Below, one piece after another: positions 41,754 to 47,242 of a stretch of 49,710 bases of DNA. Origin of the DNA: Pyrinomonadaceae bacterium (GTDB lineage Bacteria; Acidobacteriota; Blastocatellia; Pyrinomonadales; Pyrinomonadaceae); NCBI GenBank assembly GCA_036395055.1, contig DASWDX010000523.1, positions 1 to 49,710 on the forward strand, in the 5' to 3' direction. Within the stretch, counting starts at the first letter, position 1. Each line of letters opens with the position of its first letter. Made by a program: the position numbers and the translations under genes. The notes below the pieces were generated by a model, which was given only the letters and a program-made list of their open reading frames with translations, made no database searches and was not told where the DNA came from.

Positions 41754-44398
41754 GACAACTTCGCGCCTGGCTGTTGAGATTTAGAGGACTGTTTCTAAAA
41801 GACGCTCGTGAACGCGAATTCGCCGACGAGCTCGAGAGCCATCTGCAAATGCATATCGACGACAACATCCGCGCCGGCATGTCGCCGCAAGAAGCCAAAC
41901 GAGTCGCGGTGATGAAGTTGGGTGGCGTCGATCAAGCAAGAGAAGCTTACCGCGACCGCGCTACGATTCCGTTTGTCGAAAGCGTAGTGCGGGACTTGCG
42001 CTTCACGCTCAGACAGTTCCGGAAGAACCCAGCCTTTACCATTACCGCCACCGCGATGGTAGCGCTTGGCCTCGGCGCAAGCGTTGCGATCTTTGCTTTC
42101 GTCGATGCTGCGCTCATCAAACCCTTGCCATATCAAAATCCTACGCGGCTCCTCTTTGTCACGGAAACAACGCCAGACATTCCCCGCGCCGCGCTTTCAT
42201 ATCCTGACTATCTCGACTGGAAGAAGCTCAACAGAGTTTTTGACTCGATGGAGGTCTACAATCAACGTGGGTATGTGGTAAGCACGTCCGCAGGAATGGA
42301 AATGGTTGACGGCGCCCGCGTAAGTGCTGGTTTTTTCCGCACCCTTGGTGTTGGTCCTCTTCTCGGTCGCGATTTTTACACAGGCGAAGACTTGCCCGAA
42401 GCACCTCGCACTTTGATCCTCAGCTATGCCTCATGGCAAAAGCGTTTTGGCGGTAAACAAGAGATCATCGGCCAGCCGATCACCTTGGATGAAACTCCAT
42501 ACGTCATCATCGGAGTACTTCCTCAGAACTTTCATTTCGCTCCCGTCGAGAATGCAGAGTTTTGGGCCACCCTTAACCCGGGCGGCGGCTGCTTTACGAG
42601 ACGGAGTTGCCACAGTCTAAACGGAGTTGCTCGTCTGAAAGACGGCGTATCGATTGAGGCGGCGCTGGCTGATGTCACGCGCATCGCTAAAGACCTGGAG
42701 GCTCAATACCCAGACTCAAATCGGAACCAGGGCGCAACGGGCGCGCCACTGTCTGAAATAATTGTCGGAGACGTTAAGCCGATTCTGCTGCTCTTACTCG
42801 GCGGCGCCGGGTTGTTGCTTCTAATCGCCTGCATCAACGTGGCCAGTCTTTTGCTTGTACGCTCAGAAACGCGTCGACGCGAGTTGGCTGTTCGACGTGC
42901 CCTTGGCGCAACCAGAGCGCGCTTAATTCGTCAGTTTGTGATTGAGGGTTTGGTGATCGTCGTTGTGGGAAGTATCGCTGGTCTAGTTAGTTCTCATTGG
43001 GCTATGCAGATCTTAAAAGGACTCATTCCCACAGACATGATGGCTGGGATGCCATACCTCACCGATCTTGGATTGAATTCTCGTGTGCTCATGTTTGCAC
43101 TGGCCGTCGCTGGATTTGCAGCCGCACTCTTCTCACTCACTCCGGCATTTCGTCTATCGACTTTAGACGTGAGAGAAGGAATGGCGGAAGGCGCTCGCGG
43201 TAGTGCAGGTAAAGTCTGGACACGAATCGGATCCAAGCTTGTGATCCTGGAATTAACAACAGCGATGGTGTTGTTGGTTGGAGCAGGACTTCTCGGCAAG
43301 AGTTTTTATCGCTTGCTGCAAGTACGTGCGGGTTTTGAAACAAAGCACCTGATCACAATGAGAGTTAGAGCACCACTTTCGGCTTATGGAGAAGATGAGC
43401 AAGCGGTGGCGCTCGGGCGAAAAGTGGTGGAGGAGGTTAAGCGCCTGCCCGGCGTGAAATCGGTTGCGTTAGCCAGTACTCTGCCATTGAGCTTCAATGG
43501 CAACACAGATTGGATCAGGTTTGTGGGCCGGGCTTACAACGGGGAGCACAACGAAGTAAATCAACGAGGAGTAAGCTCAGATTATTTCGCAACCTTGCAA
43601 GCGAAACTCTTGCGAGGTCGAACATTCACAGACTCGGAGGATGCGACAAAGCCTAAGGTTGTCGTCATCAATCAAACATTCGCGAAGAAATATTTTCCCG
43701 GTGAGGATCCGATTGGCCAACGGTTTGGCGACACTGAGCTGAATTCCAAATCAATAAAGGAGATCATCGGCGTCGTCGACGACATCAGAGAAGGGCCACT
43801 GGATTCGGAGATTTGGCCAGCCTGTTATTATCCGTTCAATCAAGATCCTGACATCGGTTATGCAGTGGTGGTCCGAACTGCGCAGGACGAGCAATCGCTC
43901 ATACCAGGGGTTAGCGATGCAATCCGTGGCATCGACTCAAGAATCACGATTTCAAGTCAGACAACGATGACAGAGAGAGTTAACAACGCTGCGACAGTTT
44001 ACTTGCGTCGATCCGCGACGTGGCTTGTTGCAGGGTTTGCGGCCGTTGCGTTACTGCTCGGTGTTGTTGGACTTTACGGGGTAATCGCTTACTCGGTGAG
44101 TCAACGCACTCGCGAGATTGGAGTCCGCATCGCACTCGGCGCACAACGTGGTACGGTCTATCGACTCATTCTAAAGGAGGCAAGTGCGCTGGCCCTTGCA
44201 GGCATTGTGATCGGAATCGTATGTGCGATCATCGCCGCCTCGCTGATGCGCAAAATACTCTTCGGCACCCCGCCATGGGATATCACCACGCTTCTTTGTG
44301 TGGCCGGTGTCTTAGGAGCCTCAGCATTATTGGCCAGCTTCCTTCCGGCACGGCGAGCTGCGTCAGTCGATCCGATTACCGCACTGCGAGCGGAGTAG
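41750..44398 (+). CDS. Duplicated FtsX/MacB-type ABC permease (acidobacterial 'ADOP' family)
   Basis: Conserved N-terminus MRQLRAWLLRFRGLF...REREFADELESHLQMHIDDNIRAGMSPQEA. Two MacB_PCD plus FtsX (4-TM) halves. Ends in RAASVDPITALRAE. Its ATG overlaps the PadR stop as ATGA at 41750-41753. Confidence 0.9.
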   Translation: MRQLRAWLLRFRGLFLKDAREREFADELESHLQMHIDDNIRAGMSPQEAKRVAVMKLGGVDQAREAYRDRATIPFVESVVRDLRFTLRQFRKNPAFTITATAMVALGLGASVAIFAFVDAALIKPLPYQNPTRLLFVTETTPDIPRAALSYPDYLDWKKLNRVFDSMEVYNQRGYVVSTSAGMEMVDGARVSAGFFRTLGVGPLLGRDFYTGEDLPEAPRTLILSYASWQKRFGGKQEIIGQPITLDETPYVIIGVLPQNFHFAPVENAEFWATLNPGGGCFTRRSCHSLNGVARLKDGVSIEAALADVTRIAKDLEAQYPDSNRNQGATGAPLSEIIVGDVKPILLLLLGGAGLLLLIACINVASLLLVRSETRRRELAVRRALGATRARLIRQFVIEGLVIVVVGSIAGLVSSHWAMQILKGLIPTDMMAGMPYLTDLGLNSRVLMFALAVAGFAAALFSLTPAFRLSTLDVREGMAEGARGSAGKVWTRIGSKLVILELTTAMVLLVGAGLLGKSFYRLLQVRAGFETKHLITMRVRAPLSAYGEDEQAVALGRKVVEEVKRLPGVKSVALASTLPLSFNGNTDWIRFVGRAYNGEHNEVNQRGVSSDYFATLQAKLLRGRTFTDSEDATKPKVVVINQTFAKKYFPGEDPIGQRFGDTELNSKSIKEIIGVVDDIREGPLDSEIWPACYYPFNQDPDIGYAVVVRTAQDEQSLIPGVSDAIRGIDSRITISSQTTMTERVNNAATVYLRRSATWLVAGFAAVALLLGVVGLYGVIAYSVSQRTREIGVRIALGAQRGTVYRLILKEASALALAGIVIGIVCAIIAASLMRKILFGTPPWDITTLLCVAGVLGASALLASFLPARRAASVDPITALRAE

Positions 44399-44790
44399 GT
44401 TTGTAGGCGTGGGCCACGGCCACGGATCTGCCTTGACTTATAATTTCTCAGTCCCAATGTCAGGACGACTCGGAAACGTACCTTGCCGCTGTGCATTTGT
44501 GCGTAAGCGTCAGCGACACTATTGAGCGGATACTTTTTCAATCATCGGACGACATCACTTAACTCATTAAACTCCATTCTGTCTTGCGCTCCACTCGACC
44601 ACCGGCCCGGCAATTCCGGACAGCGCATCGACCAGTGAACTCAGAATGAGCATTAGGTTGGTGGAACCATCTTGTATTCTCGAGTCGACTCTTGTCTATA
44701 GGCGCGTTTGTGGTTCTCGATCTCTGTGGACTTCGCGAGTTCTGCGTGAAACTGCTTGCACAGAGTCCGTAAAGAAAATTCAAATAGAAT

Positions 44791-45624
44791 TTAAGAATCA
44801 TGGTGCCTGAAACCGTGATACAAACCCAGCCATTGTTCGAAACTCAATTCCGTGGGCGTGGCATTTAATGGAAAATCGAGCTTGCGGGCCAGGCGTTTCC
44901 ATTGCTTGTAGGTAAAGACGTTCTTAAATGCCAATTTGAGATTCGGTTTCCATCTCCCAAAGCCGTACTCAACAAAGTTGCGGTAGGGAGCGACGTCTTG
45001 CGTTTCTATTAGCGGGCGGCTACGTCGCTTGATCGACAGAAACGCTGAGTCGACGTTCGGCACGGGCCAGAAGTCGGTCCGCCTCAAGTGGGAGAGGATC
45101 CGGAATTCAAAAAAAGGCTTGGCCAGGATCGAGAATAAAGTCTCTCTCGGAGAGCCGGAAAATTTCTTCGCAGCCTCTTTCTGCAATATCAGATATGCTT
45201 CGGCTAGGTTAGACCGCTCATACAGGATCTTGCGTAGGATTTGCGCCGTAATGTTGTACGGAATGTTCGCAAATATCTTGTACTGCGAGGTCAACGTCTG
45301 TCGCCGAACTGTTAGGGACGGCGCAGCGTTGCCGGGTCGAGTACAAAACGAATACTCGAGAAAATCCTCTTCAACTATTTCAACGTTATCGAGCGGACGA
45401 AACCGCTCGCGCAGACGACGAACGAGGTCTGGGTCCTTTTCGATCGCGATGACATGTCTAGCTACGCTCGCGAGCGCCGCGGTGATTATCCCGTTTCCGG
45501 GGCCGATCTCGTAAACGGTGTCGGATGGCCCGATCGTACTCATCCCAACCAGCCGACGGACCAGCCTTGGACTCCTCAAGAAGTTTTGCGCTAAACAAAT
45601 TTGCCTGTGCTGCCGTGTTTCCAT
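44791..45624 (-). CDS. erm: Erm-type 23S rRNA (adenine-N6)-methyltransferase
   Basis: AQNFL, the SAM motif VYEIGPGNGIIT, IEKD, FANIPYNIT, and the Erm-like C-terminal half (YLILQKEAAKKF, FWPVPNVDSAFLSIKRR). GGAGGTG Shine-Dalgarno 5 nt before the ATG. Confidence 0.8.
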   Translation of the reverse strand: METRQHRQICLAQNFLRSPRLVRRLVGMSTIGPSDTVYEIGPGNGIITAALASVARHVIAIEKDPDLVRRLRERFRPLDNVEIVEEDFLEYSFCTRPGNAAPSLTVRRQTLTSQYKIFANIPYNITAQILRKILYERSNLAEAYLILQKEAAKKFSGSPRETLFSILAKPFFEFRILSHLRRTDFWPVPNVDSAFLSIKRRSRPLIETQDVAPYRNFVEYGFGRWKPNLKLAFKNVFTYKQWKRLARKLDFPLNATPTELSFEQWLGLYHGFRHHDS

Positions 45625-45653
45625 GTTTCACCTCCAGAAATATGTGGTGAAAC
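45625..45653 (-). promoter_or_regulatory. Hairpin sequestering the erm Shine-Dalgarno
   Basis: mRNA reads GUUUCACC-acauauuucugga-GGUGAAAC-AUG. The stem is 8 bp. Its 3' arm overlaps GGAGGUG and abuts the start codon. Confidence 0.55.
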
Positions 45654-45761
45654 GAAAACGCGCTTTTCTGCGGAGGGTCTCTCAAGCTCCACTCCTTGCG
45701 AAGGAGGGGTGGCAGCCGCTTCGGCTGACGGGGTGGGGTGGTTCTTTGGCAGGGCTCTAAC

Positions 45762-45806
45762 AGCAAAAAGCCGCGAACCGAAGCGTTGCTAACGCTGGTT
45801 CACGGC
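45762..45806 (-). terminator. Intrinsic terminator inside the erm leader (attenuator segments 3:4)
   Basis: mRNA reads GCCGUGAACCAGCGUU-AGC-AACGCU(UC)GGUUCGCGGC-UUUUUGCUG. That is 16 bp with one G-U pair and a 2-nt bulge, followed by U5. It lies 137 nt upstream of the erm ATG, with no upstream gene on this strand to terminate. Confidence 0.6.
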
Positions 45807-45837
45807 ACTTAAGCCTAAAACATTTAAGAGTTGAAAC

Positions 45838-45918
45838 TTAGGTGTTGATCATTCCGCGAATCAGGTAGGTACGCTCATGGGACCTTTCCACATTTCGTTC
45901 GCGGATTCGAATCAACAT
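45838..45918 (-). CDS. Candidate erm leader peptide MLIRIRERNVERSHERTYLIRGMINT
   Basis: 26-codon ORF starting 7 nt after the predicted -10 box. It contains R-I-R / R-E-R (+x+) motifs and two mutually complementary 8-nt segments. There is no properly spaced Shine-Dalgarno, so it may be leaderless. Confidence 0.35.
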   Translation of the reverse strand: MLIRIRERNVERSHERTYLIRGMINT

Positions 45919-45925
45919 GCTCCCA

Positions 45926-45955
45926 AGCATATTGATTATTGCGCAGAATTGTCAA
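45926..45955 (-). promoter_or_regulatory. Sigma-70-like promoter TTGACA-18 nt-TATGCT
   Basis: Read on the minus strand: -35 at 45955-45950 and -10 at 45931-45926. Perfect -35, 4/6 match at -10. Confidence 0.4.
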
Positions 45956-46507
45956 ACTCTCGATCATTTGCGGCCTGAGCCAGCGACGGGTTTCGAATAT
46001 AGACTCACATTATCGGAGTGAACGAGGAAATGAATGTAAATCACTCATTCTCACTTGTAATTTTCTGAGGATAAGCAAATCAGTCCTGGCGATCAACGAT
46101 CTTGAAAGGGGGAAACGTCGCCGAAACTATCCACTTTGATGGTGCTTGAGAAGGCGCAACCTACCGGGTTCGGATCCTTAGATATCGAGGAGTGCGATTC
46201 ACGAGATTGTAAACACCGGAAACTTGTCGTTTATTGCAACGGAATTTAGTTCCTCCCGGAACACAACATGGTCGTTACGAAATCCGCTCGCAGACTTTCT
46301 TCCCGATAGGAGAAACCACAGTCATTTGCAGAGCCTTTCCCCTGATCCAACGTTTTCCTCTCACCGTCTTTAATCAACGTCAAATTCTTAAACGCGGAAC
46401 TCAACCGAAATCTGTTATGGTCATCCGGCCATAAAGATCAAAAAGCGATCCAGTAAAGGACTGGAGTAGACCAACTATCCGCACACATACGTTATGGAGA
46501 ACTGATT

Positions 46508-47242
46508 ATGCAAGGTGACAACATGCGCGTGAAAACAGTATGTCGGTTGTGCTTCTTGGCAAGGTTTGATTTGCTTCCGCTCGTCGGTTTGGTCATTCTA
46601 GTTGCAATGATGGGCCCTGTCACAGCCTATTGCCAGTCGAACAACGACTCGACTTCACAAGCTACCACGAGTGCGGAGAATGATCCCCCGAACGGGATCC
46701 GCAGGGGTACGAATGAGTTTGGCGTCTTAGCTGCAATTTCGTTCGATGCAGTAGGTGACACGCCGGACGCGCGATTCGGCAGTATCGCTCTACGTTATGG
46801 GCGTGTTCTGGCGGCCAACAAGACGCTGGCATTCGAATGGACGATTGACGCTTTTCCGCTAGCCATTCTATCTAGCGATCACGTCACTTTTACGCAGACT
46901 GGGCCTGGTACCTTCATCAAGACGACCACCCGAGAGAGGGTCTACGGAGCGGGACTAGCACCCATTGGATTGAAATTTAATTTTAGGCCGCAACGTCGTG
47001 TGCAACCCTTTGCGAGTACAACCGGCGGTTTTCTTATCTTCAAAGAAGACGTTCCAGTCGCTGGGGCAGCTCAATTTAATTTCACGTTCGATTTCAACGG
47101 CGGGATTCAAATTGTTAATAGTTCGCGTCGTGCTTACACTTTGGGCTACAAGTACGAACACATTTCAAACGGTTTTCGATCGCAAATAAACCCGGGCGTG
47201 GATGTGCATGTGTTTTATGTTGGATTTTCCGTCTTCAGATGA
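46508..47242 (+). CDS. PagL-like lipid A 3-O-deacylase / acyloxyacyl hydrolase outer-membrane beta-barrel
   Basis: Signal sequence, alternating beta-strand pattern, the GYKYEHISNGF motif (H-x-S-N of the PagL family), and a C-terminal aromatic ...GFSVFR. GGAGAA Shine-Dalgarno. Confidence 0.65.
   Translation: MQGDNMRVKTVCRLCFLARFDLLPLVGLVILVAMMGPVTAYCQSNNDSTSQATTSAENDPPNGIRRGTNEFGVLAAISFDAVGDTPDARFGSIALRYGRVLAANKTLAFEWTIDAFPLAILSSDHVTFTQTGPGTFIKTTTRERVYGAGLAPIGLKFNFRPQRRVQPFASTTGGFLIFKEDVPVAGAAQFNFTFDFNGGIQIVNSSRRAYTLGYKYEHISNGFRSQINPGVDVHVFYVGFSVFR

Follow-up and report, generated by a model that had tools for sequence, protein, structure and literature searches.

The window analysed here is a 49,710-nucleotide (nt) stretch of DNA (contig DASWDX010000523.1, positions 1 to 49,710, assembly GCA_036395055.1) from a Pyrinomonadaceae bacterium, and it carries a gene for an Erm-family 23S rRNA methyltransferase preceded by a long, structured leader that looks like a transcription attenuator. 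All coordinates are window positions, and the cassette is described in mRNA sense on the minus strand. An initial annotation, made from the letters of the sequence, had proposed an Erm-type enzyme behind a four-segment attenuator with an R-x-R leader peptide in an Acidobacteria-like genome. The host belongs to the Pyrinomonadaceae and so to the Acidobacteriota, and the promoter, the 26-codon open reading frame (ORF), pairing segments 1 to 4, the U-tract, the Shine-Dalgarno (SD) hairpin and the methyltransferase gene were all found on the minus strand where they had been placed.

The erm gene (44791–45624, minus strand) encodes a 277-aa protein identified as an Erm-family 23S rRNA adenine N6-methyltransferase by profile, domain and structure matches. 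It scored 225 bits against the NCBIfam Erm equivalog NF000499 (Erm23S_rRNA_broad; cutoff 212) and matched PF00398 (RrnaAD) over residues 11–269 (E = 3e-49). The initial annotation had kept in view a KsgA/RsmA-like enzyme as the alternative; the ksgA model TIGR00755 gave 163 bits, below its cutoff of 171. The closest solved structure was ErmE (6nvm), with a full-length match over residues 6–269, and KsgA chains aligned to about residue 229 only, that is, over the N-terminal domain. The motifs EIGPGNG (GxGxG, S-adenosylmethionine binding) and ANIPYNIT (N-I-P-Y) are present in the translation and align with those of ErmE. All named-class NCBIfam Erm exception models scored far under their cutoffs, and the nearest plasmid-borne Erm, Erm(53), shares 37.6% identity with the window protein. 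Named Erm classes are delimited by an 80% amino-acid identity rule. By these matches the protein is of the Erm type rather than the KsgA/RsmA type and lies outside the named Erm classes, and it would be expected to methylate A2058 of 23S rRNA. Compared with ErmE, its N-terminal domain contains about 20 extra residues (CTRPGNAAPSLTVRRQTLTSQ) at residues ~91–112, and the NCBIfam match splits in two at this insertion.

Related loci were collected by a protein scan of one genome per species, by a metagenome DNA-pattern scan, and as seven proteins found by sequence alone. Orthologues were recovered from Pyrinomonadaceae (14, at 71–85% identity) and from one Anaerolineales genome (56%), and the promoter, leader ORF, terminator and SD box lay upstream in 15/15 of these protein-found genes. 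The same cassette was present in 7/7 further Anaerolineales-type loci found by protein alone, and the metagenome scan yielded about 33 more leaders, with about 80 of 120 pattern matches (17-mer) attributable to chance. The arrangement itself is not a chance one, because the same elements precede every orthologue examined in the same order, and the conservation of leader ORF and pairing segments among related erm loci bears out what the initial annotation had expected of a homologue search. Hereafter, clade A denotes the Acidobacteriota-type (Pyrinomonadaceae) leaders and clade B the Chloroflexota-type (Anaerolineales) leaders; single loci are given as L numbers.

Nucleotide identity across the two phyla was 76% in the segment 1–2 block, 66% in the terminator, 58% in the erm coding sequence and 36% in the linker. 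The better preservation of the regulatory block than of the enzyme suggests that the cassette has spread horizontally as a whole. The unit consists of promoter, leader and erm, since the loci become similar only from the −35 hexamer onwards and have other flanking genes than the window. More distant Erm homologues (≤44% identity; Saccharibacteria, Gammaproteobacteria and others) were considered as further carriers of the leader and lacked it. A phage origin was discarded, as three pattern matches in viral contigs had no ATG, terminator or box; a mobile element in the window was also rejected, the neighbours (MacB/FtsX permease, PagL-like protein, Ser/Thr kinase) not being common to other Pyrinomonadaceae loci, and no convincing terminal repeats flank the window cassette.

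The promoter consists of a −35 hexamer TTGACA (45950–45955), at which similarity between loci begins, and, after an 18-nt spacer, a −10 hexamer TATGCT (45926–45931). This pair is the top sigma-70-like site within 44300–46600 (10/12 matches), and no promoter-like site was found between the terminator and erm in that scanned interval. TTGACA was retained in 41/42 scored leaders, with two more leaders clipped by the extraction window, and a TAnnnT hexamer occurred 16–19 nt past the −35 in all scored leaders. In the window, the leader ATG at 45918 lies 7 nt past the −10 hexamer. The 33 clade A leaders keep this distance almost without change (7 nt in 31 loci, 6 nt in 2); in all of them the base before the ATG is a pyrimidine, with A at +1, and the gap between the −10 hexamer and the ATG contains variable bases and no conserved SD. 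Clade B leaders have 7–10 nt from the −10 hexamer to the ATG, which allows a 5′ leader of 0–3 nt. The geometry of the promoter fits the essentially leaderless sensor ORF that had been suspected from the window sequence, with a transcription start predicted at the ATG itself. An in-frame upstream ATG at 45930 was rejected as the start, being part of the −10 hexamer and not conserved between loci. The region of about 550 bp 5′ of the promoter (45960–46507), which separates the cassette from a divergent PagL-like gene, has no ORF of at least 70 aa and a G+C content of 45% compared with 54% in the window; it is not conserved elsewhere.

The leader ORF (MLIRIRERNVERSHERTYLIRGMINT; 45838–45918) comprises 26 codons and a stop, and contains two of the four pairing segments: segment 1 (UCCGCGAA, 45898–45905) and segment 2 (UUCGCGGA, 45860–45853, which with its 5′ extension CUG-A spans 45853–45864). 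Codons R4-I5-R6 (CGA ATC CGC; 45901–45909) form a basic-x-basic (+x+) motif, a conserved feature and candidate arrest site. Among the 22 loci found by protein (15 species-representative and 7 Anaerolineales-type), which make up the unbiased set, a +x+ motif lay over segment 1 in every case (22/22), as R-I-R in 20 and as R-N-R and R-E-R in one each; this tally makes basic-x-basic over segment 1 the constant feature of the peptide. The conserved stretch is I-R-I-R-E only, and residue 8 varies between R, Q, L and F. Hence the R-x-R arrest motif of the initial annotation holds for R-I-R, whereas R-E-R, the second of the two overlapping motifs, is not conserved. Two natural variants of the motif were found: in the L154 leader (MIMMIQIRER) the first Arg is gone and R-E-R is retained, and the L157 leader (MMIRNRE) has R-N-R. 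In ErmDL, arrest occurs at R6-L7-R8 when Leu7 occupies the P site, and induction by telithromycin requires this +x+ motif (PMC8298421). By analogy with that site, the ribosome is predicted to stall here when Ile5 occupies the P site and Arg6 the A site (PMC8298421).

The variation around the motif bears on whether the ORF is translated. The N terminus differs in length between loci by −3, +6, +9 or +12 nt, all in frame (MIRIRE, MTMMIRIRE, MNALVIRIRE, MMNATVIRIRE), and L003 and L005 carry a frameshift in the C-terminal half of the peptide, the nucleotides of which are kept; the stop codon lies at or past segment 2 in all leader variants. In-frame indels, an AUG fixed at the predicted 5′ end and the placement of the stop favour translation of the leader ORF. 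Conservation of segments 1 and 2 extends to synonymous positions, as would also be expected if the ORF were untranslated and the locus encoded a protein- or ligand-binding RNA, or a small RNA gene with its own terminator, with erm expressed by unregulated read-through. Such an RNA is very improbable, however, given that every indel 5′ of the motif is a multiple of three in length, with the AUG kept at the predicted 5′ end, that the stop is always at or beyond segment 2, and that changes in the motif preserve +x+ yet alter segment 1 (U to A in L157). Nor did the leader match an RNA family: a search of Rfam 15 gave no match at E ≤ 1 in 45400–46600 and none at the gathering score in the whole window.

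The composition of the peptide raises the question of what a translated leader would sense. With six Arg among the 26 residues of the window leader, and with CGA as the codon of the invariant first Arg in nearly all leaders, the same attenuator could in principle respond to general translation stress or to arginine limitation at CGA/CGC codons, and not to macrolides; upstream-ORF attenuators that respond to multiple insults exist, for example that of whiB7 (PMC13236596). Only two Arg are conserved, however, the others varying or being lost by frameshift, and the spacing that is conserved is that of the exact +x+ motif, which is retained in the R-N-R and Q-I-R-E-R variants. Moreover, the controlled gene encodes an Erm, which would be useless against a shortage of arginine, and we regard sensing of stress or arginine as unlikely.

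Segment 2 has two possible partners. UUCGCGGA is the perfect complement of UCCGCGAA in segment 1, and the loop of this 1:2 helix contains a small inner hairpin (AGGU...ACCU, 45867–45885). Segment 3 (GCCGUGAACC AGCGUU, 45791–45806) forms the left arm of the terminator, and its first 12 nt also serve as the 3′ strand in the antiterminator helix with segment 2. Segment 4 (AACGCU-UC-GGUUCGCGGC, 45770–45787), identified by folding and covariation, is the right arm; the G+C-rich terminator hairpin (45806–45770) has 10 + 6 bp with a 2-nt bulge and is followed by the U-tract UUUUU (45765–45769). In the minimum free energy (MFE) fold of 45925–45600 (−108 kcal/mol), helices 1:2 and 3:4 occur together with the SD hairpin, and the leader fold is more stable than shuffled sequences (z = −2.9; 0/100 shuffles equally stable). 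RNAalifold recovered the 1:2 helix and the terminator from an alignment of 41 leaders. The OFF structure (1:2 with 3:4) was 94.9% paired in these leaders compared with 30–45% in slid controls, and the alternative 2:3 helix was 94.4% paired compared with 33–52%. All six core pairs of the 1:2 helix were intact in 41/41 leaders. The 2:3 helix is lengthened by different sequences in the two clades, clade A using CUG/CAG and clade B GGUAUGU/ACAUAUGCC. Compensatory changes were found in the terminator (G-C to A-U at alignment pair 118:152 in 12 leaders) and at the closing pair 34:52 of the inner hairpin (A-U to C-G in 8 leaders).

To represent a ribosome that has stalled while Ile5 occupies the P site, nt 1–28 were masked and the transcript was cut before segment 4. 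Under this treatment the 2:3 helix appeared in the best fold of 41/41 leaders, whereas without masking the 1:2 helix did so in 33/41. Mean energies were −20.3 kcal/mol for 1:2, −14.5 kcal/mol for 2:3 and −23.0 kcal/mol for 3:4. The proposal of 1:2/3:4 against 2:3 made for the window, together with its expected fold, was thus reproduced across the 41 leaders, with 2:3 favoured once segment 1 is masked and the transcript ends before segment 4. The models predict an antiterminator that excludes the terminator and that is freed when the stall site is occupied.

Downstream of the terminator, a hairpin hides the SD and AUG of erm (45614–45662). Its core GUUUCACC/GGUGAAAC (45653–45625) adjoins the erm ATG at 45624 and contains the SD GGAGGUG (45635–45629); in clade A the hairpin is extended by pairing of GUUUUC with GGAAAC of erm codons 1–3. 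Its energy is −19.1 kcal/mol in the window and −17 to −22 kcal/mol in clade A. The left arm is the 3′ half of a conserved 17-nt box, CGCGUUUUCGUUUCACC (45646–45662), which is identical across nearly all leaders of both clades (L001–L015, L033–L158), the deviants (L003, L009, L011, L059, L090, L120, L154) having a single-base change or a 1-nt deletion. The hairpin explains the conservation of the box only partly, because the partner of the 5′ half (GGAAAC) is found in clade A alone. A second leader ORF over the box (KARFRF or KRVFVSP frames) was rejected, as six clade A loci have no ORF there in any frame, and so was a clade B ORF over the box, whose ATG is absent in L069 and which lacks an SD. 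A complement to the box in the 3′ UTR (untranslated region; inverted repeat I4, 44702–44716) was put down to chance, neither its position nor its partner being conserved in other loci.

The position of the SD, the AUG and the first codons inside a conserved hairpin of this stability would suit a translational attenuator of the ermC type, in which the stalled ribosome would unmask the SD through a chain of helices (1:2, 2:3, 3:4, 4:box, box:SD). In clade A, segment 4 and the U-tract (CGCGGCUUUU) are moreover complementary to AAAAGC-GCG directly 5′ of the SD hairpin, and ermK has been reported to combine transcriptional and translational levels of control. However, the predicted unpaired probability of SD and AUG over 44 leaders was 0.31 in the OFF state and 0.31 when the ON state was forced by enforcing 2:3 and masking nt 1–28. 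The helix chain from segment 4 through the box to the SD was therefore not supported. In addition, the spacer between terminator and box ranges from about 35 to about 150 nt without a conserved partner, the complementarity of segment 4 to the box is lost in clade B, and the 16-bp stem with its U-tract is shaped like an intrinsic terminator; control of this type is therefore improbable. The initial annotation had treated SD sequestration as part of the same switch: the hairpin is present, but its predicted accessibility does not change. By the folding predictions it is a real and conserved element that is not coupled to the switch, and because predicted SD accessibility is unchanged when 2:3 is enforced and segment 1 masked, the architecture is read as ermK-like attenuation with a separate SD/AUG hairpin.

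Taken with the conservation and the alternative folds, these results lead us to propose, with a probability of roughly three in four, that the locus is a self-contained, single-gene resistance cassette under ribosome-mediated transcription attenuation of the ermK type, in which the sensor ORF is leaderless. Transcription would begin at the A of the leader AUG or right beside it, and the sensor ORF would thus be read as a leaderless mRNA. When no drug is present, the ribosome would cross the ORF and segment 2, or would depart and let 1:2 form; either way, segment 3 would pair with segment 4, and the 16-bp hairpin with its U-tract would terminate transcription about 140 nt before erm. A macrolide or ketolide in the exit tunnel would arrest the ribosome at R4-I5-R6, where Ile5 would occupy the P site and Arg6 be barred from the A site, and the footprint of the stalled ribosome (about nt 1–28) would hide segment 1. 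Segment 2, freed in this way, would pair with the 5′ half of segment 3 upon its transcription, and this antiterminator would delay 3:4 and allow RNA polymerase to enter erm, after which Erm would methylate A2058 of 23S rRNA. As a second layer, the separate hairpin over the SD, AUG and initial codons of erm would hold translation from read-through transcripts low.

Several points weigh against this proposal. The compensatory changes anticipated by the initial annotation are limited to the terminator and the inner hairpin; 1:2 and 2:3 show no double compensatory change, only wobble-compatible ones, and the support for these two helices is conservation and energy, not covariation. The clade B 2:3 helix contains a central C·A mismatch, although it gains pairs at its other end through sequence of its own. 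Many of the leaders are closely related, and the counts consequently overstate the number of independent events; furthermore, only the 22 protein-found loci are unbiased with respect to the motif, because the metagenome DNA pattern already held the R-I-R codons. We found no documentation of leaderless translation in Acidobacteriota in the literature. Finally, in the full-length equilibrium fold the terminator was still the best structure even with segment 1 masked. This result rules out an equilibrium switch, and the switch must therefore be kinetic. The classical trp attenuator is likewise kinetic and has a similar energy ranking, with 3:4 more stable than 2:3.

Comparison with known systems places the proposed mechanism closest to transcription attenuation of the ermK type combined with an arrest motif of the ErmDL type, the leaderless ORF having a mycobacterial precedent. 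ermK is under transcription attenuation control (PMC5418344), and the present cassette resembles ermK of Bacillus licheniformis and ermD in having a short leader ORF and an intrinsic terminator, and in the predicted favouring of the antiterminator by a drug-stalled ribosome (PMC5418344). The +x+ motif, here a predicted arrest site with its middle residue in the P site, is shared with ErmDL (R6-L7-R8; PMC8298421), and leader and gene lie far apart in both (ermD, 276 nt; this cassette, about 210 nt). Unlike ermK and ermD, the leader ORF here is predicted to have no 5′ UTR and has no SD, R-I-R stands at codons 4–6, and the hosts are Acidobacteriota and Chloroflexota instead of Firmicutes; the leaders share no sequence similarity. 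As in ermC, ermA and ermB, a leader peptide would sense a macrolide in the exit tunnel and the methylase SD lies in a hairpin, but in those genes the SD hairpin switches and there is no terminator, whereas here the terminator would switch and the SD hairpin is predicted to be closed in both states.

Outside the erm genes, the polycysteine leader of the mycobacterial Cys ribulon is similar in having a sensor ORF at the transcription start and a stalled ribosome that remodels downstream RNA (10.1101/834739), although it senses the supply of Cys-tRNA and controls access to the SD, in contrast to an antibiotic motif coupled to a terminator. The whiB7/wblC leaders of Actinobacteria also pair an upstream ORF with a Rho-independent terminator, and the resistance determinant responds to ribosome stalling (PMC13236596); they drive a transcription factor in response to many insults, whereas here the resistance enzyme would be controlled directly through a specific +x+ motif. 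The trp-type attenuator shares the 1:2/3:4 versus 2:3 logic, including a terminating ribosome that covers segment 2, and differs in responding to a shortage of charged tRNA, as against drug-induced arrest at one motif on a leaderless mRNA. We found no report in the literature of a leaderless sensor ORF for an erm gene or in Acidobacteriota or Chloroflexota.

If the proposal is correct, erm regulation by nascent-peptide arrest is not limited to Firmicutes and Actinobacteria. The cassette is abundant in two soil phyla rich in uncultured members, Acidobacteriota (Pyrinomonadaceae) and Chloroflexota (Anaerolineales), each represented by >1000 protein clusters in public data, the switch recurring in hundreds of soil sequences from these phyla, and to judge from its sequence it looks like drug-inducible resistance in uncultured soil bacteria. 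A selected inducible switch would imply frequent encounters with macrolides or ketolides and a cost of constant methylation. The sensor would also be minimal: an mRNA that starts at the AUG and a stall after five codons would test how short a +x+ arrest peptide may be, and whether attenuation in phyla other than Actinobacteria can rely on leaderless (70S) initiation. L154 and L157 are ready-made mutants for probing the requirement for +x+, and the regulatory block offers a nucleotide signature for tracking the cassette in resistome surveys.

The spacer between the terminator and the box (45663–45764 in the window) is variable in length and sequence and has no promoter-like site or conserved ORF. 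It contains an element AGCCGAAGCG (45717–45731) complementary to the terminator right arm (45771–45785; inverted repeat I6), which pairs with segment 4 in the forced-ON fold; the element appears to be optional, because it was found only in long-spacer loci (e.g., L001, L006, L008, L051, L132). In clade B (e.g., L015, L033, L155), GCCAUGAC past the terminator is a second copy of the first part of segment 3, GCCAUGAA; the ATG that it creates resembles an ORF start and is probably an element of RNA structure instead. Also in clade B, ACGCGAG right after the U-tract can pair with CUCGCGU of the box, with a covarying version in L044 (ACGCAAGCC/GGCUUCGCGU).

Segment 3 of the window holds CCGUGAACC (45797–45805, minus strand) and the spacer holds (G)AGAGACCC (45681–45690, minus strand), with AAAGACCC in several other loci. 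CCGUGAACC and (G)AGAGACCC resemble what we take to be the E. coli 23S rRNA sequence GGAAAGACCCCGUGAACC (~A2058–C2073), beside the Erm target. The resemblance could be due to chance or could hint at rRNA mimicry and autoregulation. A speculative and rather unlikely extension of the attenuator would be a two-key system, in which the leaderless five-codon +x+ sensor acts on the terminator and the box/SD/AUG hairpin, left closed by that first switch, is an independent regulatory site. One candidate for the second key would be feedback by Erm through an rRNA-like site on its own mRNA, and autoregulatory binding of Erm to its own mRNA has been proposed for ermC; the other would be a sensor of how far the ribosome pool is methylated. 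Expression would then require that the drug be present and, at the same time, that methylated ribosomes be scarce.

The neighbourhoods of the clade B genes differ from that of the window. In L152, L153 and L155–L158, erm repeatedly lies beside genes that resemble resistance determinants, namely APH-family kinases (PF01636), PF04439 adenylyltransferases and GNAT acetyltransferases, and a DDE transposase is also present in L155. The PF01636 kinases are possibly macrolide or aminoglycoside phosphotransferases, and these neighbourhoods look like small resistance islands.

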